DNA from: an uncultured virus (IMG/VR IMGVR_UViG_3300020046_001970)
Taxonomy: Duplodnaviria; Heunggongvirae; Uroviricota; Caudoviricetes
Virus record (IMG/VR): IMGVR_UViG_3300020046_001970
Reading direction: 5' to 3' (one strand)
Length of the DNA stretch: 58,077 nt
A model generated the notes under the pieces. It saw only the letters and a program-made list of their open reading frames with translations, made no database searches and was not told the DNA's origin. Both the position numbers and the translations under genes were made by a program. Numbering within the stretch: the first letter of the stretch is position 1; each line of letters begins with the position of its first letter. This document shows positions 2,173 through 51,518 of this stretch, piece after piece.

Positions 2173-3474
2173 ATGACTCGCGAACGCTCTACTTGGAACC
2201 GTAACGAAATTGTCAAGCAAGCGGGTATGGCACGAACTGCTGACCCCTACCTGATGAATCAGGATCACGTTAAGCAGCAACCTGCCCATGATGCCTATGG
2301 CATTGGTGGACCTTCTGAATTTGGCGAAGATGTCTCGAAGGGGACATGGGAAGCTGAGTATAGCGGGGGCCAAGTCTCTCGTAACGAGATTGGACTACCT
2401 GAAATGCGCAAAGACACCTTCAACCACTCTGAGAAGACTGCAAGTGTTGAGTTCCTTACAAAGAAGGCAGCTCTTTGCGTTGCAATTTCGCGCAGCATTC
2501 TCCCAAAGACTGCCTCTGAGTCGGAGATTGAGGACCAGTCTCTATCTCTCATGCACCTCCCAGACAGTGAGGTCATGTCGACCTACTCTCGTCTAGCTGC
2601 TCAAGGTGAAGAGCAAGAGCAAGAGCAAGAGGAGCAGCAGGCGAAGCAAGCCGGTGAAGTTCCTCCTCAGTTCAAGAAGAAGGACGACGAAGAGAAGGGC
2701 CAAGACCAAGGTCAGCAGAAGCAAGCCCAACAGCAGCAGATGCAGGCTCAGGTTCAACAGCTACAAGCTCAACTCCAACAGCTACAAGCCCAGCTACAGC
2801 AGCAGGGTGGGCAGCAGGCTCAGCAAGGCCAGCAGGCTCAGCAACAGCAGGTTGCTCAGATGTTGCAGCAAGGCCAGCAGGCTCAGCAAGTTCAAGCTGG
2901 ACAGCAGGCACAACAGGGCCAGCAAGCTCAGCAGCAGCAAGTTGCTCAGCAGCAACAGCAGGCTCAGATGCAGCAGCAAGCTCAGCAGCAGCAAGTTGCT
3001 CAGCTTGTTCAGCAAGCTCAACAGCAGGGTATGGACCCTGTCCAAGCTGCGATGTTTGCAGTGCAGCAGATGCAAGGTCAGCAGCAGCCAATGGCTCAAG
3101 ACAGCCAGCTGATTGATGACATGCTACTCGATACCTCCTCAGCCCCTCCAATGATGATGGGCGAGGGAGACATTGAGATGGATGCCCCCTCCATGGATAT
3201 GTCCGATGCTCAGCTAGGCCCAGAGGATGATGTCCTTAAGACCTTGTTTGCAGCTGACCAGGATGACCAGGGGCAGCAGCAACAGGCTCAGCAGCAGAAG
3301 CAAGCCCACGCAGTCCGTACAGCCTCAACGCGTACCGTAGGGACTCGTCCCACTGGTGGCGTTAGCGCAATTGGTGGGAACCCAGGTGCAAGCTCCAATG
3401 ACATTGGTAAGCTTTCTTCCCTGTGGGGCAGCTCGCCTGATGTGCGTGAAGTCTTCGGTATGAACAAGAGCTGA
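2173..3474 (+). CDS. Glutamine-rich capsid scaffold/core-like protein
   Basis: Position between protease and capsid genes; low-complexity Q/A/E sequence; AAGGA RBS. Confidence 0.6.
   Translation: MTRERSTWNRNEIVKQAGMARTADPYLMNQDHVKQQPAHDAYGIGGPSEFGEDVSKGTWEAEYSGGQVSRNEIGLPEMRKDTFNHSEKTASVEFLTKKAALCVAISRSILPKTASESEIEDQSLSLMHLPDSEVMSTYSRLAAQGEEQEQEQEEQQAKQAGEVPPQFKKKDDEEKGQDQGQQKQAQQQQMQAQVQQLQAQLQQLQAQLQQQGGQQAQQGQQAQQQQVAQMLQQGQQAQQVQAGQQAQQGQQAQQQQVAQQQQQAQMQQQAQQQQVAQLVQQAQQQGMDPVQAAMFAVQQMQGQQQPMAQDSQLIDDMLLDTSSAPPMMMGEGDIEMDAPSMDMSDAQLGPEDDVLKTLFAADQDDQGQQQQAQQQKQAHAVRTASTRTVGTRPTGGVSAIGGNPGASSNDIGKLSSLWGSSPDVREVFGMNKS
2607..3110 (+). repeat. Imperfect CAG/CAA-rich repeat encoding QQAQQ/QQVAQ units
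   Basis: Visible directly in DNA and protein. Confidence 0.9.
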
Positions 3475-3569
3475 AAAGCTAAAAGACCGACTCAGCCTTA
3501 AGTGGCTGCTTAGATGTAGATGCGAATGTAGAAAAACCCTGCTTTTCCCCGCCTAACAAGGAGTTCGAT

Positions 3570-4217
3570 ATGTCGATGCGCGGTCAAAGCTCGGGTGGAT
3601 TCAAGGAAACGTCTGGCCGAGTTCAGTTGTTCCATGTGGTTACACGCAATAGCGTTGGAGCCCTTGCAGCAGATGCATTCACCCAGGCTAACCCTGTTAC
3701 CTACACGGGCGCTACAGTTAAGTCTACAACCCTAGCCGGTATTACCAAGGTCGGCGTTCTAGGTGGTTCGGTTGCGTTTACGCGACCTCAAGTTGGTAAC
3801 AACCTTACGGGCGGTCCCGCTACTACAGCAGGCCCAACGTTCTTGGCAGGTATCAAGCCTCTTGGTATCTTCATCAACGACGCCGTGGGTAATGCCTACG
3901 AGAACACCCCAGGACCTGCCTCTGGTCGTGGACCCTACGTCCACGGTTCGGGTACGGTTATCGGAGTCACTCTCTATGAGACCATGATTCTGCAAGCACT
4001 AGGCCCTGGCGCCCTAGCTGATCCTCTCACATACGCAGCTGGTGACTTGCTCTATGCGTCGGCAAACGGCCTTCTCACGAAGCAGCCAGACGACTCGTAT
4101 GAGCAGCTTCAATCGGGCGTGTTGTTCGCAACAATGCCTACCACCACCGTCATGGGCGTCGTTTTGGCGGCTCCTGATGCAACCAACCCATTGCTCGTGC
4201 TGAGCATGCGCGTCTGA
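3570..4217 (+). CDS. Capsid decoration/cement-like structural protein
   Basis: Small G/A/T-rich protein immediately before the MCP; PLGIF and GDLLYASANGLLT motifs; AAGGAG RBS. Confidence 0.6.
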   Translation: MSMRGQSSGGFKETSGRVQLFHVVTRNSVGALAADAFTQANPVTYTGATVKSTTLAGITKVGVLGGSVAFTRPQVGNNLTGGPATTAGPTFLAGIKPLGIFINDAVGNAYENTPGPASGRGPYVHGSGTVIGVTLYETMILQALGPGALADPLTYAAGDLLYASANGLLTKQPDDSYEQLQSGVLFATMPTTTVMGVVLAAPDATNPLLVLSMRV

Positions 4218-4255
4218 GCGCAACAGCTCTCTAAGAAAGGATAAAGGCACTAACA

Positions 4256-5128
4256 ATGGTTTCCAACGAAATTAAGCAGCAAATCATCAGCGAGTACATC
4301 AAGACTGCGGCAGGTCGCGCAAAGCTTGCTGCCTCGATGATTCAACCCCTCCGCTCGCGTCGTGACTACACCGCAGTGGGTCGTAAGACCTTCTTGGTGG
4401 AGCAACTTCCTGACGGCGCACTTCCAATCTACGACAAGGACCCGGACGTTACGGCCTACGTCGTTGGCGAGGAAGGCGAGAACATCCTTGCTATCCAGAA
4501 GCCACGCAGAGTGATCTTCCCTCTGTTCGAGGTTGCCTCGAACCCAGAGATCCCTCTCACCCAGATCAAGGAGCGTCGTTTCGACCTCATTGAGCGCTCG
4601 CAAGACCTTGCGAAGGCTCAGATCCAGGCAGCTGAGGACGAGCGTGTGTTCGCGGTTCTAGACAGCATTGCTGTCTCGGGCTTCGACACTCTAGCAGGGC
4701 AGACGAACCCCGACATCAACGTCGTGGCTCCAATCTCCCCAAGCGTCCTAGCTGACGCGTTCGCTGAGGTAGAGCGTCACGACCTTCGGGTTGCTCGTAT
4801 CTACATGAACGCAACCGACTACGCGGACATCCGTAAGTTCGGTCGCGACATCCTGGACATCGAGTCTCAAGCAGTCCTGCTTAAGACTGGTCTTCAGGCA
4901 ACCCTCTGGGGCGCCCAGATCATCACAAGCCGCCTGGTTCCAGCCGGTTTCGTGTACATCTGCGCGGAGCCAGAGAACTTTGGACGTTTCCCCGTTCGTA
5001 CAGAACTAACGGTTCTCAGTGCGGATGACGCGAAGGCCCGAACAATTGGGTTCAGTTGCTTTGAAAATATCGGCATTGGTGCCTTCAACCCTCGCGGCCT
5101 CACGCGTTTGGTTGTCACCCGAGTCTGA
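4256..5128 (+). CDS. Major capsid protein (HK97/encapsulin-like fold)
   Basis: 290 aa; pattern AKAQIQAAEDERVF...IYMN..DY.DI...LWGAQIITS..VP.G...ENIGIG; strongly biased codons; followed by a terminator. Confidence 0.85.
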   Translation: MVSNEIKQQIISEYIKTAAGRAKLAASMIQPLRSRRDYTAVGRKTFLVEQLPDGALPIYDKDPDVTAYVVGEEGENILAIQKPRRVIFPLFEVASNPEIPLTQIKERRFDLIERSQDLAKAQIQAAEDERVFAVLDSIAVSGFDTLAGQTNPDINVVAPISPSVLADAFAEVERHDLRVARIYMNATDYADIRKFGRDILDIESQAVLLKTGLQATLWGAQIITSRLVPAGFVYICAEPENFGRFPVRTELTVLSADDAKARTIGFSCFENIGIGAFNPRGLTRLVVTRV

Positions 5129-5153
5129 TAACCCAGCCTAGAAATAGGCACCT

Positions 5154-5189
5154 CAAAAGACCATCCTGGGAAACCAGGATGGTCTTTTG
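5154..5189 (+). terminator. Intrinsic terminator hairpin
   Basis: CAAAAGACCATCCTGG-GAAA-CCAGGATGGTCTTTTG, a perfect 16-bp stem. Confidence 0.85.
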
Positions 5190-5244
5190 TCATTTGGGGA
5201 ATGCGTCACTCGGTCAACAGGGAAGAGACCGAAGTTAAAAGTTC

Positions 5245-5273
5245 TTGACAGACATACTCATGGGCTGTACGAT
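5245..5273 (+). promoter_or_regulatory. Sigma70-type promoter, probably for a leaderless transcript
   Basis: TTGACA-17 nt-TACGAT, with ATG at 5280 six nt downstream. Confidence 0.7.
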
Positions 5274-5279
5274 GAGGGA

Positions 5280-7544
5280 ATGATCTCAGAGCCCGAATTG
5301 CGACGTCTGTACTTGGAAGAGAAGCTAACAACAAAGGAAATTGGTCAACGTTTTGGGTTGACTCAGAGTCAAGCTAATCGCCTTCGGATTAGGTACTCCA
5401 TCCCTACGATTAGTAAGTCGGATCGGCTTGACCTACCTCCGCTGACAACAACTCAGAAAGAGGTGTTACTGGGTTCAATTTTTGGAGACGGTAGATTACT
5501 CTCAACAGGTTCGGTTACTGCTGGGTACTCGGAGTTTCACTCAGACAAGCAGTATGAATACCTTCAATGGAAAGCTAGTGTGTGGGGGGCCCATCTCTGT
5601 TCGGTACGTGACGGAAATAGCACAAAAAACGGAAAAACTTACCGTGGTCATATTCTACGTACCCATGGGTGCAGGGAGCTATTTCCCTATTGGAAGAAAG
5701 TTTACCCGTCTGGAGCAGGGTACAAGGTTTTCTCTAAGTTAGACTTGACTGAGTTTACCGCTCTTTCATTAGCTGTGTGGTACTTGGATGACGGTTGCAA
5801 GTCGAACAATGGATACATACGACTTGCTGTAACCCCCGACGAGGAGAGTCAGCAAATTGAGTTAACCTTGTTGCGAGGGTTTGGTTTAGACCCTGTTCTT
5901 CACTCAAAAGATGACCCTGCTATTTGGTTACATGACCGAGCTAGTATGCTCAGGTTTCTAGACCTAGTAGCCGAGCATATTCCAGTCTCTATGGGGTATA
6001 AGTTAGAGTTAGTCCCTCGCTCTCGGGGGGTAGCCCCACGGGACCTGTTAACGGAAGAAGTCTTACGCGACTCGGTTGGAAAAGGTCGTGGGCTGGATTG
6101 GATGGTGCAGTCCACTGGAACTTCCACTACCTCTGTTCGACGTGCGCTGAAAAAATTCGACCTGACTCTCCCTGAGACCAAACAAGACACATGGGAAGAA
6201 GTAAAACAGCGTGTTCAGGTTGGTATTTCGGATGTCGAGTTAGTGGATGCTCTAGTCAGCCTCCCTCTCCCAAAAGCCCCATCTACCGAAGAGGCTCGTC
6301 GTGACTTCGAGAACCTATGTTCCAAGACTTTGGTCAAGATTGAGGATGGGCTTATTCATGGAGGGGGTAGGGTGGGGTTAACTACCTGTCAGGCGTACTT
6401 TCAGTATAGGTATGAAGCAACCAGAGAGAGTAAGCCTTCGGTTCGACAAGCTTGGTTTGACCCCATTGCAATAACAAAGGCTATCGCATTCCAACGTAAG
6501 GTGGGCGACCCTGTTTACCCTGCTAATGTATTCAGAGCCATCAAGGCCTTGAATGCAAGCCCGTCAAACTTTAGGCCTGCCGTTGCAAAGAAGTTGGTGG
6601 AAGAGTTCTCTCCCAAGGGGGGCACTGTTTTAGACCCATGTGCTGGGTATGGGGGCCGTGCTGTTGGTGCTATTGCAGCGGGTCGCAAGTACGTTGGAGT
6701 AGACCCTCACCCCAATGCAGAGGATGCCTTTGCTGCTTTGAAGGAGTGTATTACCGGAGACCTTACTTTCTACAACCTTCCATTTGAAGAGGTTCAGTTA
6801 GGGGCACTTCAAGCAGACCTGATACTGACGAGTCCCCCTTACTTTTCTGTTGAACGTTACTCGAACAATCCAACCCAGAGTTGGGTGAGGTACCCAACCT
6901 TTGACTTGTGGGTAGACAGGTTTCTGAGGGTACTTCTTAGCAAGTCATTTAACCATCTGAAGGATGGTGGAGTGATGCTACTCAACGTGGCGGACTCCTA
7001 CTTGAGTGGGAAGTTGATCCCTCTTGTTCAAACTTCGTTAGACGTTGCCCAGTCGGTGGGGTTTGTTCATGAGCAGACGCTGGGCATGTTGTTAGGTTCA
7101 TTTGGTCGACGTAGGAAGGAAGAACCCGTTCTTGTACTTAGAAAGAACGGTGGTGAGTGTGTTGTTCCTTTCATCTCAGTACCTAAAGGACCCCTTCGTA
7201 GGGAGGTCTACAGCTCTACAAAAGTCTCTGAGGGGGAGTTACGAAACTTGTATGAGGTAGAGCTGCTAACTGACTCCGAAATCGGGCAAAAATTTGGGGT
7301 CTCCGATGTGCTTATCTCTCAACAGAGGAAGCGATTCAACATCCAAAGTGTTAGCTTTAGGCAAAGAATCGAGAAACGTAATCCATCCCTGTTGCCATTA
7401 AGTGGTCTAACCGAGGAGAGGTTACGAGAGTTGTCTGTAACCTTAAGCGATGGGGACATCGCAAAGCTCTATGGGGTCTCTAAGCCAACAATACGTAACC
7501 GTAGGCATCAGTACAAGATACTGACAGAGAGGAAGTCTAAGTGA
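5280..7544 (+). CDS. HTH / LAGLIDADG endonuclease / N4-N6 DNA methyltransferase / HTH fusion
   Basis: LLGSIFGDG and LAVWYLDDG (two LAGLIDADG motifs); DPCAGYGG (motif I) and TSPPY (motif IV); LR.LY...EIGQ.FG HTH repeats at both ends. Start reassigned to ATG 5280. Confidence 0.85.
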   Translation: MISEPELRRLYLEEKLTTKEIGQRFGLTQSQANRLRIRYSIPTISKSDRLDLPPLTTTQKEVLLGSIFGDGRLLSTGSVTAGYSEFHSDKQYEYLQWKASVWGAHLCSVRDGNSTKNGKTYRGHILRTHGCRELFPYWKKVYPSGAGYKVFSKLDLTEFTALSLAVWYLDDGCKSNNGYIRLAVTPDEESQQIELTLLRGFGLDPVLHSKDDPAIWLHDRASMLRFLDLVAEHIPVSMGYKLELVPRSRGVAPRDLLTEEVLRDSVGKGRGLDWMVQSTGTSTTSVRRALKKFDLTLPETKQDTWEEVKQRVQVGISDVELVDALVSLPLPKAPSTEEARRDFENLCSKTLVKIEDGLIHGGGRVGLTTCQAYFQYRYEATRESKPSVRQAWFDPIAITKAIAFQRKVGDPVYPANVFRAIKALNASPSNFRPAVAKKLVEEFSPKGGTVLDPCAGYGGRAVGAIAAGRKYVGVDPHPNAEDAFAALKECITGDLTFYNLPFEEVQLGALQADLILTSPPYFSVERYSNNPTQSWVRYPTFDLWVDRFLRVLLSKSFNHLKDGGVMLLNVADSYLSGKLIPLVQTSLDVAQSVGFVHEQTLGMLLGSFGRRRKEEPVLVLRKNGGECVVPFISVPKGPLRREVYSSTKVSEGELRNLYEVELLTDSEIGQKFGVSDVLISQQRKRFNIQSVSFRQRIEKRNPSLLPLSGLTEERLRELSVTLSDGDIAKLYGVSKPTIRNRRHQYKILTERKSK

Positions 7545-7552
7545 CCCCAGGG

Positions 7553-7562
7553 ATCTTCTTGT
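7553..7562 (+). promoter_or_regulatory. Candidate phage late-promoter motif (ATCTTCTTGT)
   Basis: One copy of the recurrent intergenic WTCTWCTTRT motif; RBS begins ~16 nt downstream. Confidence 0.5.
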
Positions 7563-7591
7563 AGCCTACCTAACATATAGGAGAGTGACTC

Positions 7592-8602
7592 ATGGCATTA
7601 CTAGATGCAGATGCAACGTTAGCTGGAGGGGCAACGCAAGCAGTAGACGCAGCTCTACTCTATACGTTGGATTCGGTTTTTGGGGGAGGTGCAACCCAAA
7701 CAGGAGATGCTACCCTTCTCTACGACGTATCTTCAACGATGGTTGGTGGGGCAGACCAGGTATCGATTCCGACCCTACTACTGGACTCGCTAACAGGGAC
7801 CTTAACTGCAAGTGGGGATCTCGTTGGAAGCGTTTTCTATGCCGGGGCTTTGGACTCAACGGCAGCTGGAGGTGCCTCTGTAGCGGTAGACCTACTTATG
7901 GGCGAGTTGGGAGCTGTAGACTGTAGCGGATCTGCAACCGTTGTAGCGGACCCTACCTCTCTCATGGCTTTGGGGTTGACTCTAGAAGCTGCGTCCTACT
8001 TGGTGACCCCTTCCTTGTGGAGTTCTCTAGGGGTACCCCTACCTTTGGTGTATGGAAGTGATACGAACTTCAGTTCTACCATGGGTCCAAACCTCATCAC
8101 CTCTACTGTGCGTAGCCCAGCGTTCTCTACGAGAGGGACCGGGAAGTTTTCAGCCGAGGGTAAGCTTACGGGTAGGCAGGGGTCTATTGACCTTTGGGTT
8201 ACAACTGGGGCGACAGGATCAGCTAGGTCCTTGATTGTACTTACCAACGGGGTAACCAATAACTTCCTAGAGATCCTCCTCGACACAAACAACAGAGTTA
8301 GTCTGATTCACCGTTCTGAGGCGACCGCCATTGTAGCTCAAGCTACTGCGCAGTTTGCAGCGGAGCCAGTTGGAACTAGAATGAATCTAAGGTATGTTTG
8401 GGAATCTACTCAGGCAGTTGACGTGTCCACTAGATTCGCGGTACTGTACAAAAACAACGAGAAGATAGCCACTTGGGCGACTGACCCAACGGCAGCTTGG
8501 GATAGTTTCTTCCCCACCCTTATCTACGTAGGAGTTGGAAGCGTGGCTACGGGCGGAGACTTCAACGGCACCGTAGACAAGGTTCAAGTTGGTACTGCCT
8601 GA
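7592..8602 (+). CDS. Virion fibre/decoration protein: A/G/D/T-rich repeats plus LamG/lectin-like C-terminal domain
   Basis: DATLAGG-type repeats; C-terminal GSIDLWV...FNGTVDKVQV. Confidence 0.55.
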   Translation: MALLDADATLAGGATQAVDAALLYTLDSVFGGGATQTGDATLLYDVSSTMVGGADQVSIPTLLLDSLTGTLTASGDLVGSVFYAGALDSTAAGGASVAVDLLMGELGAVDCSGSATVVADPTSLMALGLTLEAASYLVTPSLWSSLGVPLPLVYGSDTNFSSTMGPNLITSTVRSPAFSTRGTGKFSAEGKLTGRQGSIDLWVTTGATGSARSLIVLTNGVTNNFLEILLDTNNRVSLIHRSEATAIVAQATAQFAAEPVGTRMNLRYVWESTQAVDVSTRFAVLYKNNEKIATWATDPTAAWDSFFPTLIYVGVGSVATGGDFNGTVDKVQVGTA

Positions 8603-8946
8603 CAGAGGGAGCTTCCTATGCCACCGTTGAATATCTGGACAATCGGACCATTTGTGTGGTGGTTGCATGTCACAGACGCTACTTTACGTCTCTGGGGTTT
8701 GAAGAAGTGACCAGTGCAGTGGCTGGGCTGCAACAACTACTCCTCTGAGCTTGTCTACTATAGGTCCAGCATGGGATCCGTACTCACCTGAGGCCCCGCA
8801 GTGAGTAGTTCCCAAGACTTATTTTCACCCAGTCGAACTTTTCTGGTTGATTTCGCTAGCGCGATAAATGTACTTGGGTTATATAGTAGGAGTACTTAGG
8901 CATTGTTGATGCCAAATATCGTAAGATATCGAAAGGACAAGAGAAA

Positions 8947-9348
8947 ATGACAAAGACAGAGTTGATTTCGGCCCTCGCAGCAGAGATGGAAAGCAGCAAC
9001 AACAAGTCCACGAAGGCGACCATCCGCGCTTTCCTCAAGGCACTTGAGGCTGTTTCGTGTAAGTCCCTTAAGAAGGACGGAGCGGTTACAATTCCTGGTC
9101 TCGTGAAGCTACTTGTCCTAAAGGTGGGCTCGAAGCCAGAGCGTAAGGCTCGGAATCCTGCGACTGGCAAGGAGATGATTGTCCCCGCGAAGGGTCCGGG
9201 CAAGAAGCTGAAGGCTCGATTTGTCCGTTCGCTGAAGGTCGGTGTTGGGCAGATTGCGGCCCCACCGAAGAAGGCTTCGACGGCTAAGCCTGCGGCTGCA
9301 AAGGCTGCAAAGCCTGCAAAGCCTGCGGCAGCTGCTGTCTCGAACTGA
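8947..9348 (+). CDS. HU/IHF-family DNA-binding protein with K/A/P-rich tail
   Basis: MTKTELI...IPGLVK...R.ARNPATG; tail KKASTAKPAAAKAAKPAKPAA. Confidence 0.92.
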   Translation: MTKTELISALAAEMESSNNKSTKATIRAFLKALEAVSCKSLKKDGAVTIPGLVKLLVLKVGSKPERKARNPATGKEMIVPAKGPGKKLKARFVRSLKVGVGQIAAPPKKASTAKPAAAKAAKPAKPAAAAVSN

Positions 9349-12449: not shown

Positions 12450-13137
12450 ATGAAGGCTCTTGAGGGCCTTTTGGCTGAGTCCAAACTCCCTGAGGGAGAC
12501 CCAGCAGGAAGAGGGGTGTCTTTGGATCCTGGGATCCCAGGCACCTCTTCTACTGGCTATGTCTATCTTGTCACAAATACCGTTAACGGTAAGAAGTATG
12601 TTGGTTGCACACGGGTGACTGTATCTAGGCGTTGGATTCAACATCGTAGCGCAGCTAAGAACGGGAGCCCATTCGCTTTACACCAGGCCATACGTAAGTA
12701 TGGGTTTAACAAGTTTCAAATGCATTGAAGTTGTAGAGGGGTCTCATGCAACTCTGATGGAAGTTGAAATTCGTCTTATCTCTCATTATGGTAGTGTAGC
12801 CCCTTACGGCTATAACCTTACTCATGGTGGAGATGGTGTTGACTACTCCGTGCCAGGAGTGCGGGAACGACACTTAAAAGCTATGCGTGAGTTACCTTTG
12901 GACCCTATCTGGGTACAGTCTCTTAAGGATGGGATCAAGAAAAGACAAATGGACCCAGAGAGTAGGGCAAATCAGTTAGCTGGGGTTAGGCAGAGTCACC
13001 TTAACACTCGGTCTAAAGTCTGTACCTTATGTGGAGGCCCATTGGACATTCATAGATCTTGGTGCACCCCTTGTAAGAAGGACTACCACAAGGACTATAA
13101 CAGGAAGTATACTATTAAGCTTAAGGGGCAGTCATAG
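12450..13137 (+). pseudogene. GIY-YIG homing endonuclease split by a +1 frameshift near 12714
   Basis: GYVYLVTNTVNGKKYVGCT...AIRKYG in one frame, continuing as KCIEVVE...E..LI...GYNLT.GGDG in the +1 frame. Confidence 0.8.
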
Positions 13138-21772: not shown

Positions 21773-23161
21773 ATGCCAAACAAGGGTCGTTGCGTTTGTC
21801 CTGCGTGTGGGAAGAACCTAGCTCCAAAGAGTATTCACGCTCATACTCTTGAGTGCGTGGATTGGAAGACGAAGTACGGTGATCCTTACCCCTACTTCAA
21901 GTTCAGTGGGACCCCCCACCAATACTCTGACGTAGCTCAGGATGGCACCGACTATGTTCGATGTCGGGTGTGCCTTGAGTATGGGTGGGACTTTCGGTTC
22001 AAGCGCATGATGGACCACTTAAAAGGGGTACACGGGCTTAGTGAGGCTCAGTATCTACTAAGGTTCCCTGGGGCACTAGTGAGGTTGTCGTCTACTCTAA
22101 GTAAGAGGCAGGGGACGGTACAGGATAGGTTTGGGGTTAGTAACGTTTTTCAAGCTGAAGTAGTCAAGGCTAAGTCCAAAGCCTCCTTGCTTGAACATCA
22201 CGGGGTAGCCAATCCAATTCAAGCCAGTTCGATACGAGCAAAGATCGATGCTACAAATCTTGCTCGTTACGGGGTGGCTAACCCTTTTGCCTCCTTGGAG
22301 GTGCAACAACGTATTCGAGCCACCAACCTCGAACGATTTGGCGTCGAGAACCCTAATCAAGCTCCTGAGATCATACAACAACGTATAGCTACCAACCAGG
22401 AGCGATATGGTGCAGATCACTACTTTGAGACTACCGAGTTCAAAGAAAAGTTCAAGGCAACTTCTTTGGGGAGGTATGGCACTGAGCATCCTATGCAGTC
22501 TCCAGAGGGTAGGTTACCATGTGAAACTAGTATGATTTCTAGTCTTGGTGTTGCATACCCATTTAGATCTGATGTTGTACAAGGTAAGGCCTACGCCACA
22601 TCCGTTGCGAACCATGGGGGGCAGCACCACCTTTCTGATCCAGCAATCATTGAGGCACGGAAGCAGCACTTGATGGAGCTTTACGGGGTAGATAACATCT
22701 CGAAGGTACCAGCGGTTAAAGAGCGAATCATAGCTAAGATCAAGGAGCGTTTTCGAGACGGAGCTATCCCTCGTATTACGACTCCAGAAAGGGTATTTAG
22801 AGACCTTGTACCCGAGCGTGTGGTATACTCTGGAGACTTTGCGTACTGGGTAACGTGGACAAATGGGAGACGTAAGAACCCAGACTTCGTGGTACTAACC
22901 GAGGAGCAGTATGCAGCGTATAGAGCTGGAGTCCCCTTGGGGGATTTGCGTACCTACCTTGTGGTCGAGGTCAACGGGGTTTGGTGGCATACTAAGCACA
23001 AGAACATGACGCGCGAGGCTAGGGAGAAAGAGTTCGTAGAGGGTTATGCCTCAGTTGGTGTGAGTTGCTTGGTTGTTTGGGAAGACGATCTAGAGACCAA
23101 GCTAGAATCAATTCAGCAGCAGGTCAGTGCCTTTCTGGTGCAACCGAAGGTTAGAGGTTAA
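21773..23161 (+). CDS. Free-standing endonuclease: Zn fingers, ER(F/Y)GV.NP repeats, PD-(D/E)XK/Vsr-like domain
   Basis: CPAC and CRVC...H...H; repeated YG/FGVxN units; NPDF...VEVNG.WWH...VVWE. Confidence 0.75.
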   Translation: MPNKGRCVCPACGKNLAPKSIHAHTLECVDWKTKYGDPYPYFKFSGTPHQYSDVAQDGTDYVRCRVCLEYGWDFRFKRMMDHLKGVHGLSEAQYLLRFPGALVRLSSTLSKRQGTVQDRFGVSNVFQAEVVKAKSKASLLEHHGVANPIQASSIRAKIDATNLARYGVANPFASLEVQQRIRATNLERFGVENPNQAPEIIQQRIATNQERYGADHYFETTEFKEKFKATSLGRYGTEHPMQSPEGRLPCETSMISSLGVAYPFRSDVVQGKAYATSVANHGGQHHLSDPAIIEARKQHLMELYGVDNISKVPAVKERIIAKIKERFRDGAIPRITTPERVFRDLVPERVVYSGDFAYWVTWTNGRRKNPDFVVLTEEQYAAYRAGVPLGDLRTYLVVEVNGVWWHTKHKNMTREAREKEFVEGYASVGVSCLVVWEDDLETKLESIQQQVSAFLVQPKVRG

Positions 23162-27239: not shown

Positions 27240-28276
27240 AGTATGTGGTAAGCTTCTGCGTAGCTATCGTGGAGTAGCAAGTCATTTGAGACCAGATAGA
27301 GTGAATGCAGCGCACGGACCATTACGCGAAGAGTGGCTTCGATGGAGAGATACCTATCGAGTAGTATTGAAATGTCGAAAGTGTGGGGTACCCTGGGAGG
27401 TTAATTCAAAGTCCGAGAGTAACAGAAAACGTTGCCCCTCTTGTTGTCAACTTCGTAGGAGTTTGGGTAAGCTGGGGTACGAAAAACATGACATCTCACC
27501 ACCACCTCCTAAGCTAGACCCCCACTAAGTCATCGTTTTGTTGGCAGAGGGGGGATCCTACTTACCTAGAAATTGAATCCGGTCTGTGGCGAGAAGACAC
27601 CACGGTCCGTAGTCTTTTGAGGGATCTCAGTCTAACCTACATCGCCTTTCGTGCTATAGCTGAGGATATTCTTGGTTTGGTTGGATATCAAGAGTGGGCT
27701 AGAGCTAGGAGGCTAGAAGTTACCAAGAAAGCTTACACCGCAGCACGAAAGGCCTACTCTAGCTTAACACCAGAGGGGAAGGCAAAGAGGCGTAGTGCGA
27801 TGGCTAACCGCCCCACCCTTCTTGAGCTTGGCATGGTTGATCAACTCCGTGCTCAAGGGGTTAACTCTTTGGAGCTTAACGTCTGGCAGTCAGTTCCCAT
27901 AAGGGGACAGATGGTTCCGCGAGAAGCAGACATTAAGATCTCTATTGGAGGTGGTCGAAAAGTGGTTGTATTGTGTGATGGGGAAGCTTTTCATGGGCCC
28001 CGCATGATTTTCGGGAACCCTCAAGATCGTATTCTTGCTGACACTGAGACTGCTGAGGCTTACTACGCTTTGGGCTATAGCGTCGTACGGTATTCGGAGA
28101 CGGAGATTAAGTCTGGGGTTGCAGTAAAGCACATGCTGGATGTCCTCAAACGGTTAGACGGATGTAGAGCTATTTATCGAAACTGGTGCCCAAGTGAGGA
28201 GAGGGTCTCCTCTCCTAGTACCTTACACCTAATCCACTTATCCGTTGGAGCTGAGTATGACAAGCAAGCTAACTGA
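27217..28276 (+). pseudogene. Zn-finger plus Vsr/DUF559-like endonuclease split by a +1 frameshift near 27522
   Basis: GGAGG RBS and ATG 27217 (CKVCGK...CRKC...CPSC) ending at TAA 27528; +1 frame open from the C5 run to EADI...CDGEAFHG...GYSVVRYSE. Confidence 0.65.
28232..28241 (+). promoter_or_regulatory. Candidate late-promoter motif (ATCCACTTAT)
   Basis: 15 nt before ATG 28257. Confidence 0.5.
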
Positions 28277-31490: not shown

Positions 31491-31541
31491 GATCTTGAGG
31501 TAGGGTTGGGGTTCGATAAAGGTCTTATGCCCTGTTGTAGT

Positions 31542-32432
31542 ATGCCTCAAGAAAAACGAACATTCTCGAAGGAAGAGCTACAGTCTTTGCTGGATACCGA
31601 CCCTAACATCACAATACAGAAAATGGGACTTATCCTGAGTTGTGGCAAGCAGACGTTGGCTAGAGAGTTGTCTAGGCATGGTCTTCGAACTAGAAAATGG
31701 GATGAACGCAAGCATACACTTGAGACTCGAACAAAGATTAGTCAGCAGCGCATTGAGAATGGCGTTGCTAAGGGTGAAAAAAATCCTAACTATGGCTCCA
31801 AGCCGAGACCATGGTTGGAGGGAGAAAATAGTTCTCTTCGTAAGTGGCATCAGGAGCACCCAGAGTTTGGAGTCAACCAACGTGGAGTTGAGAACCCCAT
31901 ACATAAGGTAAAGCATCTATACCAAGATCCTGCTTACGTTGCTAACATCACCCGTGGCATTCGAGCCCATGTCAAAAGTAAGACAGGTAGGAGCTACGAA
32001 GAGGTGTACGGGGCGAAGAAAGCCGCAGAGTATAAGGATAAGCTCAGGGCGGCCTCTCCAGGGAGGATGTCAAAGTTCAAGCGCAAGGTAACAAAGCCCG
32101 AGTTGATTGTCAGGGGTCTTCTTCAGGGGCTTGGAGCGTCGTTCGTGGAACAGGCCACCTTAGGTCCTTACACGGTGGATTTTCTTGTCCCTGATTTACG
32201 ACTCGTGGTGCAGGCTGACGGGGATTATTGGCATGCGAACCCAGAAGTGTACCCTAACGACGATAAACTATCCAAGTCTCAGCAGAAGCAGAGACGACTA
32301 GATGCCTCGTGTAACTCCCTCATTAAGAACAAGGGTTATGTGCTAATACGGTTGTGGGAAAGTGACTTACGTCAAAATCAGGAAAAGTGTGCAGAGATCC
32401 TATGTGAGGCTCTCAAAATGAGGAACAAATGA
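31542..32432 (+). CDS. HTH/NUMOD3 plus DUF559/Vsr-like endonuclease
   Basis: HTLETRTKIS..GEKNPNYG; TKPE...YTVDF...ADGDYWH...RLWESD. Confidence 0.8.
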   Translation: MPQEKRTFSKEELQSLLDTDPNITIQKMGLILSCGKQTLARELSRHGLRTRKWDERKHTLETRTKISQQRIENGVAKGEKNPNYGSKPRPWLEGENSSLRKWHQEHPEFGVNQRGVENPIHKVKHLYQDPAYVANITRGIRAHVKSKTGRSYEEVYGAKKAAEYKDKLRAASPGRMSKFKRKVTKPELIVRGLLQGLGASFVEQATLGPYTVDFLVPDLRLVVQADGDYWHANPEVYPNDDKLSKSQQKQRRLDASCNSLIKNKGYVLIRLWESDLRQNQEKCAEILCEALKMRNK

Positions 32433-33445
32433 GTACAGACCAGACATATTGTTATGGAGTTGGGATTGACTTGGGGACAATGAATATTTTGTCCGCTCGG
32501 CAGACAAAAGACAACAAGATCCATACCAAACGAGTAAGGGATGCGTTCATTGACTTGGACGGGGAGGCTAAAAAGGCCCTCAAAATGACGAAGGTCGAGT
32601 ACGTCGAGAGGGATGGTCAGCTGATTGTCATTGGAGACTCAGCCTTGAACATGGCCAACCTCTTCAAGCGGGAGGTGCGTAGACCTCTCGCGAAAGGCGT
32701 TGTTGCAGCTGGGGAGTTCTTGGCTCAGGAAGTCTTGTCTTTGATGATCTTCCAAGTCCTACAGGAGCCCTTGGTCGAAGGGGAGCACTGTTATTACAGT
32801 ATTCCTGCGGCACCTATTGACATCCCAGACCAGGACGTCACTTACCACCGTGAGGTCTTCCGCAAGATCATCTCTGAGTTTGGTTACACCCCCCACCCGA
32901 TGAACGAAGCTATGGCTATCATCTATAGCCAGTGTGCAGAAGAGCAGTTCTCTGGGCTATCGGTCAGCTTTGGCTCGGGCATGTGTAACGTAGCACTCGC
33001 CTATCAGACCATGATGGGTATGGAGTTCTCGATGGCTAGAGGTGGGGATTGGATTGATCTCCACGCGTCTAAAGCCACTGGAATGACAGCTTCCCGTATT
33101 TGCGCAATCAAAGAAAAAGGAGGTTTCAATCTTGCTAACCCACCGAAGAACAGTCGTGAGGCTGAAGCGATATCTCTCTACATTCGTAGTCTCATCAGCT
33201 ACAGCCTGGAGAAGATCGCACACCAATTCCGTAGGGACGCAGGGAAGATGGAACTCTCGGACCCCATCCCATTCATAGTGTCAGGTGGGACCACGAAGGC
33301 GGAGGGCTTCATGGATATCTTCAAAGAGGAGTTTGAAGCCATGAAGAAGAAGGGTTTCCCAATCCAAATCTCCGAGGTTCGACAGGCGAAGGACCCTATG
33401 ACGGCAGTAGCAGAAGGCCTTCTTGTACTAGCGATGCAAGAGTGA
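32429..33445 (+). CDS. Actin-like ATPase (volactin/MreB-like)
   Basis: Phosphate-1 GIDLGTMN, connect NEAMA, phosphate-2 SFGSGMCN, adenosine VSGGTT, connect-2 AVAEG. Confidence 0.88.
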   Translation: MSTDQTYCYGVGIDLGTMNILSARQTKDNKIHTKRVRDAFIDLDGEAKKALKMTKVEYVERDGQLIVIGDSALNMANLFKREVRRPLAKGVVAAGEFLAQEVLSLMIFQVLQEPLVEGEHCYYSIPAAPIDIPDQDVTYHREVFRKIISEFGYTPHPMNEAMAIIYSQCAEEQFSGLSVSFGSGMCNVALAYQTMMGMEFSMARGGDWIDLHASKATGMTASRICAIKEKGGFNLANPPKNSREAEAISLYIRSLISYSLEKIAHQFRRDAGKMELSDPIPFIVSGGTTKAEGFMDIFKEEFEAMKKKGFPIQISEVRQAKDPMTAVAEGLLVLAMQE

Positions 33446-33452
33446 GGATTTC

Positions 33453-34271
33453 GTGAAACCTTGCAAAAAATGTGGAGTAACTGATCGGAACAGTCAGGGT
33501 GGTTGTCGCCCTTGTGCGAAGATTTACCTACAGGCCTATTACCAATCCCATAAAAGTCAGGCTAAGACTAACTCTCGCAATCGTACGCAGGGATTAGCAG
33601 ATGGGACGCTTAAACGTCCTTCGCACCCATGCACTAAGTGTGGTAGTTCTGAGCGAGGTAAATACGGGCACTGTCTGCCTTGTGGTGCCGCTCGTAACTT
33701 GAAACGCTACCATGCCGACAAGCCGAAGGCGAAGGCATACAAGCACGCTCAATACTTGAGTAACAAGGATAAGGTGAATGCGGACAGTAAAGCTTGGGCC
33801 AAAGCTAACCCGGACAAGCGAGATGATGCTACTGAGAGAAGACGCTTGAAGAAGTATGGGCTTACAGTTGAGCAACATCAAGCACTTTTTGAGATACAGG
33901 GTGGTCTCTGCCTTATTTGTAATGAGTCGTTTGGGAAACGAGTTCACATCGATCACGACCATAGTACAGGTCGTGTTCGGGGACTTTTGTGCCACACCTG
34001 CAACGTAGGTCTAGGTCACTTTAAGGATAGCTCAGCACTTTTACGTAAGGCTGCCGAGTACCTTGAGGGCCACCAACCAACGGATTTCGTAGTGCCCAGT
34101 CCGGTCATCAAGGTTTTTCAGCCCAGTGATGGTCGATACAAGATCACAGATGCAGTGCGTTCTCAGATTAAGGTCTTGCGGGAGCAAGGCCTTAGTTTAG
34201 GGGTCATCGCAAAAACGGTTGAACTATCGCGGTCTACGGTTCAGGTCATTCTCAAAGAAGTGAGACACTAA
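33453..34271 (+). CDS. Endonuclease VII-type HNH homing endonuclease with C-terminal HTH
   Basis: KKYGLT...Q.G.C.IC...HIDHDH.TG.VRGLLC..CN.GLG.F.D. Confidence 0.9.
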   Translation: MKPCKKCGVTDRNSQGGCRPCAKIYLQAYYQSHKSQAKTNSRNRTQGLADGTLKRPSHPCTKCGSSERGKYGHCLPCGAARNLKRYHADKPKAKAYKHAQYLSNKDKVNADSKAWAKANPDKRDDATERRRLKKYGLTVEQHQALFEIQGGLCLICNESFGKRVHIDHDHSTGRVRGLLCHTCNVGLGHFKDSSALLRKAAEYLEGHQPTDFVVPSPVIKVFQPSDGRYKITDAVRSQIKVLREQGLSLGVIAKTVELSRSTVQVILKEVRH

Positions 34272-36709: not shown

Positions 36710-39700
36710 ATGAGCTTTGGTCCACTAGGCACTTACGTCCCACCTGGCGTATACTCGCGTACTCTAACCGAGGCGACCTTAGCTTCATTGATCCCAGGGC
36801 TGCGAATTCCAATGTTGGTTGGAATTGGCCAGGAGGAGCTGGAGCAGTACGACCTAGAGTTGGTGCGAGGTTCCTCGTCCACGCTAGATCAGCAGATCCT
36901 TAACGAGGATATCTCTGCTCGTTGGGTTGTAGACGACACCAACCCTCAGAACTTGGTTCTGGGGGCAAACAATGGTACCCGAACTAGATTTGTAGTTCGT
37001 AACTTCCCTATCGTTGATGGGCAGGGTATCGGTCGACCAAGCAACGATGCTAGGGCTGTCTCGGTCACCGTGAATGGTGTTCCCGTTGCGATTGGAGCGG
37101 TACGAGGTACAACTGGAGAGGTCATCCTTCAGGTCCCTCCTCAGCCAACCGATAACGTACGAGTCACTTACTTCTTCCACCGGGGCGACACGGCCTTCAC
37201 GGATAATGTCTCGGACCAAGTAACGAGCACAACGGCAGAGATTGTGGCCTCTGGGTACGAGCCCTTTTCGATTACGGCTGGCACGAACAACCTCCTCAAA
37301 ATCAAGGTTGACGGACTAGAGTCCACGATTGCCTTCACGGATGCCGCAGCTGCTACAGTGTCTTCGTTGAAGAATCAGATTGACGCTGCTGGTATCTCGG
37401 GGCTAAGCACCCTGGTGTTCCAGGCAAATGACGGCACGCTCCACCTCCAGATGAACTCTGCAATCTCAATCGAGATTATGGATGGCAATGCGAACGGGAC
37501 GCTCGGTCTCTTTGCAGGGCAGAAGTCTACGAGAAACACTGCCTTCCGCGTCTACCAGAGGCCTATCGTAGATGGGTCTTCTGGGGGAATCACCACCACT
37601 GACCCCTCCAAGGTAGTGGTCATGGTGAATGGATCTCAGGTAATCCCATCCTCGGTAGATGGGACAAACGGTATCGTGAATCTTAGCTCTCCGCCCTCTG
37701 TTGGGGCGATTGTAGAGATCACGTACTACTCGAATACTTGGCAGGACACGTTCGACTACCTACCTAACACGCTGGTAACGAACATTGTCCGTTGTGGTAT
37801 TAGCCCAAATCGTTCGGACTACATCCAGAACCAGGACTTCGTAGTTTCTAACCCAAGTCCTGACGTCTCTATCATCCACTGGGGTACGAGCTACAGTGTA
37901 GCGTCTTCGCTCCGCACTCCAGGGGCAGAGCCTCTAGATGACTCTCAGATTATCCCCACGCTTGTGGACGATAAGCTGTGGTTGGTGGAGTGTGAGCGCT
38001 ACGTGGACACCTCTGTTGTACCCTCCAAGGTGTCTACGACAGACTTCGTCCTCCCTGTATCCCCTACCACGGGTAACGGGCGTAACACTCCGCTGACTCA
38101 GACTCTGTTCAACACGGCTACGAATGCTCGTAACGACCTCATCACCAATCGTCCAGACTTGGTGGTGATTCGTGTTGGTCGAAGCTTGCGAGATGCTTTG
38201 GGTCGTCCCGCAGCAAAGGTCCTTGTTCTTGACGGGTCCACTCGCAAGGTCACCCTAAAGGACCCTGTTCCGCCAGACTTCAAGGCGTACGCTACGTACC
38301 ACTACAACCGTATTGCAGATGACACCTATGTCATCACAAACAAGACCAGTGGTCCTGCGGGCTCGGGTCAGTTTGAGGTGCTCAGCGCACTCTACAACAC
38401 CAATGTGATGCAGGTGCGCTTCGGGTCCAAGGGTGGCGGTTTGGTGGACACTGTACAGTGGCCACGAGGAGCTGAGCAGGTTCCTGATGCCTTCCACTAC
38501 GGCAAGACTCCAACCTCTGAGACGGTCACCGTTACCTTTGGTTCGAGTGTAGCTACCAATGCTCTGTACACGAACAAGGGAGCACAGCCCTTCTCGTTCT
38601 ACAGTCCATCCTCTGCCACTTGGCGCACAGCCCTGAACGGGGCTCCAACGGTGGTTACCAACCTAGCGGTTGCCACTCGTGGTTACCTTGTGTCCAAGGA
38701 AATCACCTTGGTCTCAGGTGGGTTTGCCATCACAGCCGCAAATCAATTGCTAGAGCTTACTGTAGACGGAGTTAACCTAACGGTTACCCTTCCAGTGGGC
38801 GTAGCGGTTACCCCAGCTGCAATTGCTACGGCTGTCAATGCTGTAGTCGATGCAAACGCTTCGTTCATTGGTACAGCTCCAAACAACTTGTTTACAGCTA
38901 TCCCAGGGGCAAGCGGAGCTACGAATTACTTTGTTCTACGTAGCTACTCAACCCCAGCGGCTCTTCCAGGTGGGTTTGATCACAAGTCCTATGCAGCTAT
39001 CCGTCAAGGTACAGCAGAGACTACGCTAGGTCTCACGACCTTCCAGCGTGCTGACGGTACTCCTACCGCAGTCAACAAGCCTGCTACCCTTCTGGGTACG
39101 ACGGCTCAACCGTTCATCATCACGGCTGGAGTGAACGACCTATTCAAGGTCCGCATCAATGGGATTGACTTCACGGTCACTCTCAGCTCCGCCTCGACCA
39201 CCTCTGCTCAGATTGTCTCAAACCTCAACGCCATCATTGCCTCCCAAGGTACTGCAAGTGTCGGGACGCTAGACAACCTGAACAAGATCCGAATCACTTC
39301 AAACGTGAACTCGGATCAATCCACCGTTCTTATTCTGAACGGCACTGCAAACGCAACCCTTGGGTTCACAGAGGGTACGTTCGCCAGTCAGGTTCGAGTC
39401 AGTGTCCAAGAAGTCTCCAACAGACTGATGGATACTCCTAACTTTGCCGTATCTACCTGGAGCCCTCCTACTGCATTCGCAGGAGCTGTGGCTTACCCAG
39501 CAACGATCAACGGTTCAGTTTACCTGACCATTGCATCGCTCATCACTGGACTAACCTCTTCGGTTGCTTTCGTTACCGGGGCGAACTCAGCGTTCAACAC
39601 GTTGAGTGGTACTCAGATTACTCCAGGTACCGATGGGGATAACGGTGAGGCTACTTACGACAACTTCGTCGTAACATCCTCGAACCCCGTAGGTTCGGCT

Positions 39701-48550: not shown

Positions 48551-49771
48551 GTGAGTCGCACCCTTGTTACGATAGCTACGGATGGGTTTCGAGACTATGT
48601 AAGTCTCCCCAATGGCGACACAATCAACCTAGGTACAACCTCGGTCCTAAAGCTGATTACGGAAGTGGTGCCCTTCTCAGCGGATATTCGTAAGGCCCTA
48701 GATACCTTCCTAGCTAAAGGTACCGTCACTTTGGCGGCTGATCAGTCAGCTCTACTGAAGGTTCTTCGCCCAAAGAAGTCCCGATGGGCAGCACATGAGA
48801 ATCGTTTTATTCCCGTTGGTATACAAGACCCTAATGGAGTTTGGAATTCAATGAGTACTGACCTGTTTAACTCTAAGCTCGCGTCTCTAGAGACCCTTGT
48901 CGAACTTGGTATTGACGAGGACACTACTAGGGTTGCTCGTCAGCTTGTGGCGGCTCTAAGGGTAGCAGCGGTTGATGCGGATGCCAAGCGAGAGCTGGAC
49001 TTGTTCATTGAGAACGAGGGGCGGTTGGCAGCTAAGAAGGAGAGTATCCTTACCAACCTACTCCGTAAGTTGAAGTCTGATGGTTACAACCACAGCCAGG
49101 CCCCCAAACTTTGGATGTACCTCGTGGACGAAGGGGCCAAGATGTACGCGAAGGAGATGGGTAGCGGTATTGGGGACGCAAAAAACCTCTTCCCCAAGGA
49201 ACTCCGAGAGTCTCTCGCAAAGGACATGGCTGACAACGAGCTAGAGCTAATGAAGAATGGGGAGTACGACCATTTGAAGAAGGCTTCTAGCTCGGTAGAG
49301 GCTCAAGTGGAGACGGTTGTTGGGCAAGTAGAGACTGCACTCCAAGTGGTCGAGACTAGCCCTAAGGCCAACACGCACCTGGCTAAGAAAGACCTTCACA
49401 TCATTGCTACGAAACTAGCTGCTATGGTTTCAGAAGATGCGGGTCCTGAGGTCACAGCAGGGCTAGAGGACTTGGCTGGGAAGGTAGCCAAGATCCAGTC
49501 TCACTTTGCTTGTGGCGGGGGCTGCTCAGGTCATGCTCAGAGTGAGGCAGAGAGTCTACTATCCAAGGTTGAAGACACCTTCCAAGTAGTAGAGGCCAGT
49601 GGTAAGTCTGGAGCAAACCTAGCGAAGAAGGACCTACACACTACCACGGTAAGGCTAGCTTCTTTGCTGCGTGAGGGCGGCGTAGATAGCGTCGAGGGTC
49701 AAAAGGCTCTACGAAACTTGTCTTTCAATGTAAGTAAGATTCGGTCTCACTTCGCGAGTCGAGTCGTCTAG
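48551..49771 (+). CDS. Modular hypothetical protein with duplicated C-terminal helical domain
   Basis: VE...QVVE.S.K....LAKKDLH.....LA...KI.SHFA occurs twice. Confidence 0.75.
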   Translation: MSRTLVTIATDGFRDYVSLPNGDTINLGTTSVLKLITEVVPFSADIRKALDTFLAKGTVTLAADQSALLKVLRPKKSRWAAHENRFIPVGIQDPNGVWNSMSTDLFNSKLASLETLVELGIDEDTTRVARQLVAALRVAAVDADAKRELDLFIENEGRLAAKKESILTNLLRKLKSDGYNHSQAPKLWMYLVDEGAKMYAKEMGSGIGDAKNLFPKELRESLAKDMADNELELMKNGEYDHLKKASSSVEAQVETVVGQVETALQVVETSPKANTHLAKKDLHIIATKLAAMVSEDAGPEVTAGLEDLAGKVAKIQSHFACGGGCSGHAQSEAESLLSKVEDTFQVVEASGKSGANLAKKDLHTTTVRLASLLREGGVDSVEGQKALRNLSFNVSKIRSHFASRVV

Positions 49772-51422: not shown

Positions 51423-51518
51423 CCCCTCACAAACTAACAGATTAAGATAAACGTAGAGAGACTAGATCGGATCAAATTCCCTTTCTGTCTCTCCCACCTA
51501 TGGGTGCGGAGAACACAC

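Follow-up and report, generated by a model that had tools for sequence, protein, structure and literature searches.

We analysed a 58,077-nucleotide stretch of DNA from an uncultured virus of the class Caudoviricetes (IMG/VR record IMGVR_UViG_3300020046_001970), hereafter the window, and focused on one gene in it, which encodes a LAGLIDADG homing endonuclease fused to an amino-methyltransferase (MTase). The gene lies on the plus strand at positions 5280–7544, behind the major capsid protein gene. According to the list of open reading frames (ORFs) and its translation, it is a single unbroken ORF of 754 residues from the ATG; an alternative in-frame TTG start at 5187 would extend it to 785 residues. 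The window comes from a jumbo phage, since the fusion protein is recorded on a 381,772-bp contig and the upstream gene encodes a major head protein. The best named matches of the capsid protein come from an uncultured 485-kb phage (83%), the Tunturiibacter phage Tunturi_5 (47%) and the Bacillus phage G (37%).

Domains of the fusion gene

The fusion protein consists of a nuclease and an MTase set among helix–turn–helix (HTH) modules, in the following order.

5280–5429 (+), residues 1–50: N-terminal HTH (Pfam Sigma70_r4 at 9–34; model)
5430–6014 (+), residues 51–245: monomeric two-motif LAGLIDADG nuclease of the I-SceI/I-WcaI type (Pfam, alignment, fold)
6015–6251 (+), residues 246–324: middle HTH-like helical bundle and linker (model; HTH Pfam matches at the corresponding place in relatives)
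6252–7154 (+), residues 325–625: amino-MTase with a conserved helical N-terminal subdomain, DPCAGYGG and SPPY, and without a C-terminal target recognition domain (TRD) (Pfam, alignment, fold)
7215–7544 (+), residues 646–754: two C-terminal HTH repeats, found only in the closest subfamily (Pfam, alignment, model)

Pfam matches were obtained for LAGLIDADG_2 (residues 60–216, E 2.6e-16), for N6_N4_Mtase in two stretches (E 5.7e-12, best at 429–482) and for HTH models at residues 9–34 and 725–746. The nuclease carries the motifs GSIFGDG (D70) and WYLDDG (D170/D171), and in the MTase motif I, DPCAGYGG (452–459), precedes motif IV, SPPY (518–521). An AlphaFold model of the whole chain (predicted local distance difference test, pLDDT, 89.4) contains additional helical bundles at 259–292 and 651–745. 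Its residues 42–245 match I-SceI (Z 22.1, root-mean-square deviation (rmsd) 3.1, 195 residues aligned) and I-WcaI (Z 20.9; PDB 1r7m and 6x1j), and Foldseek assigns the domain to the same fold (E 3e-9). The nuclease thus has two LAGLIDADG motifs in one chain with an I-SceI fold, an acidic residue after each motif and basic lysines (D70, D171, K241, and K or R at 149), which places it among the I-SceI-type enzymes. In I-SceI, these acidic residues and lysines act in catalysis. Folded alone, the MTase domain adopts a class I S-adenosylmethionine (SAM) fold with a pLDDT of 96.4. Pfam, motifs and model therefore agree on the domain order that had originally been predicted from the DNA letters, with motif I ahead of SPPY and everything in one ORF.

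Two other readings of this ORF were rejected. The original prediction had noted that intein splice motifs are missing, and no intein Pfam family was found in the fusion, although the same scan returned Intein_splicing (E 0.0046) in the ORF at 28–2136; in the alignment and the model, moreover, the nuclease sits at the N-terminus with no flanking extein halves. A pair of genes joined by an assembly artefact is refuted by the recurrence of the same ORF in related loci (L001 and L002/L080) and by a protein search with the fusion, which recovered 57 other proteins, most of them carrying both LAGLIDADG_2 and N6_N4_Mtase.

The active sites are strongly conserved. In an alignment of 42 proteins including the query, from which short or distant homologues had been removed, no variation is seen at D70, D171, K241, motif I or SPPY (42/42), and position 149 is always K or R. 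The ratio of nonsynonymous to synonymous substitution rates is 0.06–0.11 for the nuclease (3 pairs) and 0.05–0.11 for the MTase (4 pairs), with the remainder of the 10 locus pairs tried being saturated at synonymous sites. Across 29 loci, distances in the nuclease and MTase trees correlate closely (Mantel r 0.92), and their correlations with the capsid tree are 0.10 (p 0.08) and 0.18 (p 0.01), respectively. By these comparisons, nuclease and MTase are each intact and under purifying selection, and the two are inherited as a pair. The fusion is thus one gene with an intact nuclease and MTase, neither two genes nor a fixed element with a dead nuclease.

Movement of the cassette at the capsid locus

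The surroundings of the fusion gene comprise the features listed below.

4256–5128 (+): major capsid protein gene, host gene and putative target of the element (PHROG 2522 major head protein, E 1.4e-51; Pfam Phage_capsid)
4966–5107 (+): co-conversion tract with 21 synonymous differences from both L078 and L079 (alignment); the putative cut site lies within or adjoins it
about 5155–5188 (+): intrinsic-terminator-like hairpin of the capsid gene (RNA fold; compensatory changes in L078/L079)
5205–7547 (+), approximate limits: exchangeable cassette, swapped for an MTase-free LAGLIDADG gene in L078 and in sequencing run X1, and absent in L079, X2 and X11
5245–5273 (+): sigma70-type promoter TTGACA-17-TACGAT, ending 6 nt before the ATG (promoter scan, 10/12 consensus match)

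The cassette is patchily distributed. Eighty loci were picked by capsid similarity only and were not dereplicated: 8 contain a fusion, 3 a fusion together with an MTase-free LAGLIDADG gene (11 complete fusions in all), 24 a LAGLIDADG gene without MTase (three of which end at a contig edge and may be fusions), 3 an MTase joined to another domain and 37 neither domain, and 5 are too short. On a capsid-DNA tree built without the gene's 3′ end (84 labelled rows; 15 loci were dropped for want of an anchor), the presence of the fusion requires 19 changes, and at least 12 of these changes are forced by strong branches. Near-identical phages differ in the same way. L078, with flanks 97–99% identical to the window, has an unrelated MTase-free LAGLIDADG gene (27% identity) in place of 5210–7547, and L079 (94–96% identical) lacks 5198–7759, including the start of the next gene. 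Among four sequencing runs from four studies, X1 carries an L078-type allele, in X2 and X11 the two flanks are joined with no cassette between them, and in the RNA run X15 only the capsid gene is covered; no sequencing run matched half the words of 4200–7700. The window's own species therefore has three alleles at this site, which answers the original call for a presence/absence comparison in relatives and confirms that the element is mobile. Because the few remaining letters at the empty junction look like the beginning of the L078 cassette, the nearest "empty" allele is probably a deletion derivative of the rival MTase-free element. In total, at least four element types occur at the capsid insertion site, in tandem or replacing one another within one phage species.

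Flanking co-conversion accompanies these exchanges. The capsid gene of the window does not differ from L079 over 4256–4965, and the 21 synonymous differences follow in the 142-nt tract. Contigs of all four runs carry the non-window allele at most of the 21 sites, and the window allele of 4966–5107 is absent from all four; either allele may be the derived one. Three near-identical pairs, independent of one another and each including a fusion carrier, show clean tracts: the window and L079, L228/L076 (4960–5071, with one more change at 4933) and L188/L143 (4957–5014). Pairs carrying the same element (L055/L118, L113/L115 and L067/L070) have no excess of differences at the capsid 3′ end. Three pairs do not fit this pattern: L087/L157 and L212/L213 show tracts without either domain, as far as a screen for these two domains goes, and L213/L220 (no element versus fusion) shows none. 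According to PMC2988022, intronless homing in phage T4 combines a distant cut site with co-conversion, and the tracts described here match this. Homing genes also cluster near capsid genes, as PMC10448857 reports. On the alignments, the nuclease most likely has its target within the capsid gene, at its 3′ end, and not at the empty insertion site, and phages exchange the cassette together with that end. Intergenic and optional, adjoining a conserved gene and, apart from the three pairs above, flanked by co-conversion, it has the properties of a free-standing homing gene. From these comparisons it is very probably a real, conserved and actively moving element of this kind.

The original prediction had placed the fusion behind the capsid terminator and under its own promoter, which holds in part. 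The hairpin is supported by its predicted fold (−32.3 kcal/mol in a folded 60-mer) and the compensatory changes, but it is not among the sites listed by a terminator scan of the window. The promoter scan returned 2 sites where 2.1 were expected, so that the match at 5245–5273 is, alone, at chance level. Across element loci, a promoter score of at least 9 was reached in 22 of 72, versus 13% of shuffles, and the ATG follows the −10 box by 4–10 nt in 18 of the 20 loci that pass a stricter scan. This spacing suggests leaderless transcripts that are made early. No Rfam family was found in 3400–9000 and no tRNA gene in the window; hence, no intron or RNA partner was found.

Several other features of the locus and its neighbourhood were recorded. 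In the empty allele (L079, X2 and X11), the gene behind the cassette (7592–8602) is shortened by ~56 codons at its start, and L002/L080 lack ~260 bp at 8162–8422, so this gene tolerates truncation. Stacked elements behind the capsid gene (L043, L064, L071, L004, L006 and L010) comprise up to three LAGLIDADG genes in tandem as well as proteins of 1229–1266 residues with two LAGLIDADG domains and an MTase; the first nuclease domain of L043 is degenerate. Upstream, the plus-strand ORF 28–2136, which begins before the window, resembles a head maturation protease, and the end of a LAGLIDADG intein makes up its first 251 residues. Between the protease and capsid genes lies a glutamine-rich low-complexity ORF (2173–3474), possibly a scaffold protein. 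The structural region also encodes an HU-like DNA-binding protein (8947–9348, Pfam) and what is, by motif, presumably an actin-like protein (32429–33445). Many more free-standing endonuclease-like ORFs are scattered between the structural genes (12450–13137, 21773–23161, 27617–28276, 31506–32432, 33453–34271 and 49771–50679); they include a GIY-YIG gene split over two ORFs (Pfam), and the others we take, by motif, to be DUF559-, Endo VII- and HNH-like. A run of N at about 51770–52420 lies within the ORF at 51504–52610.

The methyltransferase and the question of self-protection

Like DNA amino-MTases, the MTase has motif I and a motif IV of the type (S/D/N)PPY on a class I SAM fold. The family profile is matched best by 2zie, a putative modification methylase (E 2.7e-10), and by 8s9m, a DNA cytosine-N4 MTase (E 1.5e-4). 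The domain also matches PADLOC type II MTases as well as Pfam N6_N4_Mtase, and the viral clusters that match it have been named N4-cytosine-specific automatically. The closest solved folds point elsewhere: the top structural matches are the tRNA N2-methylguanosine (m2G) enzymes Trm11, TrmN and Trm14 (Z 18.3–16.7, 173–180 residues aligned, 14–22% identity), led by Trm11 (Z 18.3, rmsd 2.9, 180 aligned, 17% identity). Fold searches with the MTase domain found no DNA MTase in the top 50, which we counted as no evidence against a DNA substrate; the tRNA m2G enzymes have the same motif order. The amino-MTase proposed in the original prediction is thus borne out by fold, motifs and DNA MTase profiles, and N4-methylcytosine (N4mC) on DNA is its likely, predicted product.

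Members of this MTase family occur with a variety of partners. A search with the domain gave 5970 matches among 50%-cluster representatives. Of the 146 new representatives among the matches listed, 123 were scanned with Pfam (23 short ones were left out, and the best 5 families per protein were considered): 39 contain LAGLIDADG_2, 8 LAGLIDADG_3 and 8 ParB_N (P0101 and seven others), and single proteins contain HNH_3 (one strong and one weak match), Endonuclease VII, or NUMOD3 with DUF559. Pfam also detects a LAGLIDADG_3-like region fused to the MTase in L060. Further loci join the MTase to what we take, by motif, to be a zinc finger with a Vsr-like nuclease (behind the sheath gene), a tandem PD-(D/E)XK-like nuclease (behind the capsid gene) and a GIY-YIG-like with a LAGLIDADG_3-like nuclease. 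Partners have also been exchanged: in L106 an MTase of the window's clade is attached to a different nuclease, and in L067 an S-clade nuclease (see below) is attached to an MTase of another clade. The window itself contains a second fusion:

41096–43360 (+): HTH, zinc fingers, a presumed Vsr/DUF559-like nuclease motif and an MTase of the same family (35% identity over 304 residues), directly behind a tail-sheath-like gene (36710–40999)

The sheath-like gene encodes 1429 residues. We assigned the nuclease label of this second fusion by recognising the motif; Pfam gave no nuclease match for P0059. Its distribution repeats what is seen at the capsid gene: among 63 loci picked by the sheath gene, 21 have this nuclease without MTase at the same site, 1 has it with MTase and 36 have neither, while 4 are too short and 1 is unusable. 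Taken together, these sequence surveys characterise the MTase as a portable module and the nuclease–MTase fusion as a recurring design in uncultured jumbo phages. As for other forms of the family, HTH–HTH–MTase proteins without nuclease have 411–424 residues (P0072, P0074, P0078 and P0094), and a genomic context search for this form found no locus; P0060 and P0066 each have two MTase domains of the family.

Homing endonucleases are known to leave the genome that carries them uncut, its target being interrupted or altered. As the best explanation of the whole, to which we give an even chance, we propose that the fusion gene is a free-standing homing endonuclease gene carrying its own MTase as a self mark. 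The fusion protein would be made at an early stage of a mixed infection, from a promoter read by the host polymerase. Its LAGLIDADG domain would cut the capsid gene of the rival at a long site within the final ~160 nt, and recombination repair would copy the carrier's capsid end and the cassette into the rival. In the least certain step, the MTase, helped by the fused DNA-binding domains, would mark carrier DNA within or close to this site with an amino-methyl group, probably as N4mC, and carrier genomes, once packaged, would be immune from the outset of the next infection. Methylation would in that case take the place of, or reinforce, the resistant sequence allele on which MTase-free elements seem to depend.

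The capsid C-terminus is near-invariant as protein in carriers and non-carriers, and sequence immunity would therefore have to use synonymous bases. The nuclease tree consists of one large MTase-free clade, S (32/33 rows), and three mostly fused clades. We searched for diagnostic bases by nuclease clade in dereplicated loci with a capsid identity of at least 89%. Carriers of S only have A at 5065 in 15/17 cases, versus 12/44 non-carriers (p 2e-5; 2/1000 permutations family-wise; upstream control 130/300). This base is synonymous (Glu codon GAA versus GAG), is found with S in L078, L039, L058, L107, L108, L118 and others, and is a candidate resistance base that predicts the target site of clade S. 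In fusion carriers without S the best base is G at 4984, in 6/15 versus 1/44, which is borderline (56/1000 permutations). An earlier scan over all clades gave no diagnostic base for close fusions (best p ~1e-3, uncorrected), and distant ones were confounded by phylogeny. The contrast between S and the fusions weakly favours methylation as the self mark.

A number of observations weigh against this role. Fusion carriers show the borderline 4984 allele and a lower GC content at third codon positions in 4955–5020 (p 0.017), and the window itself retains the 21-site foreign tract, which leaves room for sequence immunity. The fusion set mixes three nuclease clades and thus has lower power, and the S base is not significant in a tree-aware test (median p 0.25, 7 pairs) and is less clear in distant phages (4/9). 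MTase-free LAGLIDADG genes are commoner than fusions at the capsid site (24 versus 11 of 80), and complete MTase-free members occur inside a fusion clade (L027, L065 and L071), always beside an S element; hence, the MTase is not required for such elements to persist. The MTase family also occurs alone, in L025, L052 and a Vibrio phage 2.058.O protein annotated as an N-4 cytosine methylase, or fused only to ParB or HTH domains. Finally, we reason that a one-strand mark would leave one daughter duplex unprotected after replication. On the sequence evidence, methylation as a self mark is therefore a claim that we hold to be as probable as its negation.

The most probable alternative is that homing proceeds by a resistant allele and that the element is a selfish vehicle with cargo, whose MTase methylates a short motif genome-wide against host restriction and thereby keeps the element under selection. 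The stand-alone viral members just named, the viral N4-cytosine MTase clusters and the nuclease-free HTH–MTase proteins of 411–424 residues would suit this, as would the conserved N-terminal MTase subdomain, which could be a recognition domain of its own, the early sigma70-type promoter and the borderline 4984 allele. It leaves unexplained, however, the in-frame fusion, as opposed to adjacency, to several unrelated nuclease folds and the tight co-inheritance of nuclease and MTase, and we regard it as possible but doubtful. The MTase might instead mark the capsid 3′ hot spot in order to block rival nucleases such as clade S or PD-(D/E)XK elements at the same site, where at least four element types meet. 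This is unlikely, given that fusions stand beside clade S elements in L004, L006, L010 and L225 and that A, the base associated with S, is already present at 5065 in the window.

The two remaining alternatives are both highly improbable. In one of them, the nuclease domain is a domesticated long-site DNA-binding module that aims methylation at late or own transcription; the several HTH domains, the leaderless-type promoter and the nuclease-free HTH–MTase forms are compatible with such a regulator, but the catalytic acids and lysine invariant in 42/42 proteins, the patchy distribution and the fresh conversion tracts are not. Activity on RNA (Trm11-like m2G) or another non-DNA substrate, for which the top structural matches speak, has marginally the lowest probability of all: the tRNA enzymes share the motif order at only 14–22% identity, the profiles favour DNA MTases, all fusion partners are DNA-binding or DNA-cutting domains and the window has no tRNA gene. 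The original prediction had called the gene a homing restriction-modification unit with a self-protecting or anti-restriction MTase; the mobile homing unit with an intact amino-MTase is upheld, self-protection is evenly balanced and anti-restriction cargo is the weaker of the two roles.

If the nuclease does bring its own methyl mark, this would be a third solution to sparing the self, linking homing to restriction-modification and using the logic of the latter for gene drive between phages. More tentatively, and with somewhat less confidence than for the single element, the fusions of jumbo phages may form a class of homing elements with epigenetic self-immunity, in which a portable amino-MTase, aimed by the fused nuclease (LAGLIDADG, Vsr-like, PD-(D/E)XK, HNH or GIY-YIG), marks the long target, so that self would be told by methylation and not by sequence. 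Should methylation follow the long site of the nuclease, the protein would be a natural single-site DNA methyltransferase, useful for targeted methylation tools. The locus is directly testable, as it brings together cutter, marker, the 142-nt tract and, from one phage species, natural alleles with and without the element.

Comparison with known systems

Our literature searches, which covered mostly open-access text and so may have missed an entry in REBASE or a supplement, found no description of the fusion, in line with the original impression that the architecture was not a described one. The nuclease is closest to I-SceI and I-WcaI (Pfam PF03161), with which its fold, second motif and C-terminal lysine motif align. 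Unlike I-SceI, which is intron-encoded according to its PDB title, the fusion is a free-standing phage gene whose nuclease has HTH domains on either side and is joined to a 300-residue MTase. In its genomic setting it resembles the free-standing Seg and Mob nucleases of T4, being intergenic beside a conserved gene, with a putative distant cut site, co-conversion and a probable promoter of its own; segD, for example, lies between genes 23 and 24 (PMC2988022). The T4 enzymes, in contrast, are of the GIY-YIG or HNH type, and none is described with an MTase domain; the word "methyl" is absent from the text of PMC2988022 and PMC10448857.

An endonuclease and a methylase are also encoded in one phage locus where homing genes invade methylase genes. 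Inteins have reportedly been found in mycobacteriophage methylases. In ShiLan, a hidden HNH gene lies inside a phage methylase gene (PMC11855218). In such cases the insert parasitises the methylase gene, whereas in the fusion the nuclease is N-terminal, in frame and without a splicing domain, and nuclease and MTase move together beside the capsid gene.

With regard to the MTase, viral SPPY amino-MTases (Vibrio phage 2.058.O, pithovirus LCPAC) belong to the same family (30% identity, E 3e-20) and share the predicted fold, their N4C labels being annotations. N4mC has been reported in giant viruses (PMC7253447), and the enzymes described there could not be tied to the family of the fusion MTase. 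Gamma-group DNA MTases are defined in PMC2890505 by motif I ahead of motif IV, NPPY and a C-terminal TRD. The fusion MTase shares their order, X-I-II-III and then IV, but it has SPPY instead of NPPY and no C-terminal TRD, with most homologues ending just after the last strand, and we therefore did not assign it to this group.

The combination of nuclease and amino-MTase in one chain, with a possible cut-or-mark logic, recalls the Type IIG/IIL restriction enzymes. Those enzymes, such as Eco57I and MmeI, combine a PD-(D/E)XK nuclease with an NPPY gamma MTase and a C-terminal TRD, recognise short, frequent sites and serve in cell defence. The fusion differs from them in its LAGLIDADG nuclease, predicted to recognise a long site, in its SPPY motif and the lack of a TRD after the MTase, and in its signature of homing of phage versus phage. 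We therefore do not classify it as a Type IIG enzyme, although its mode of action may still resemble theirs.

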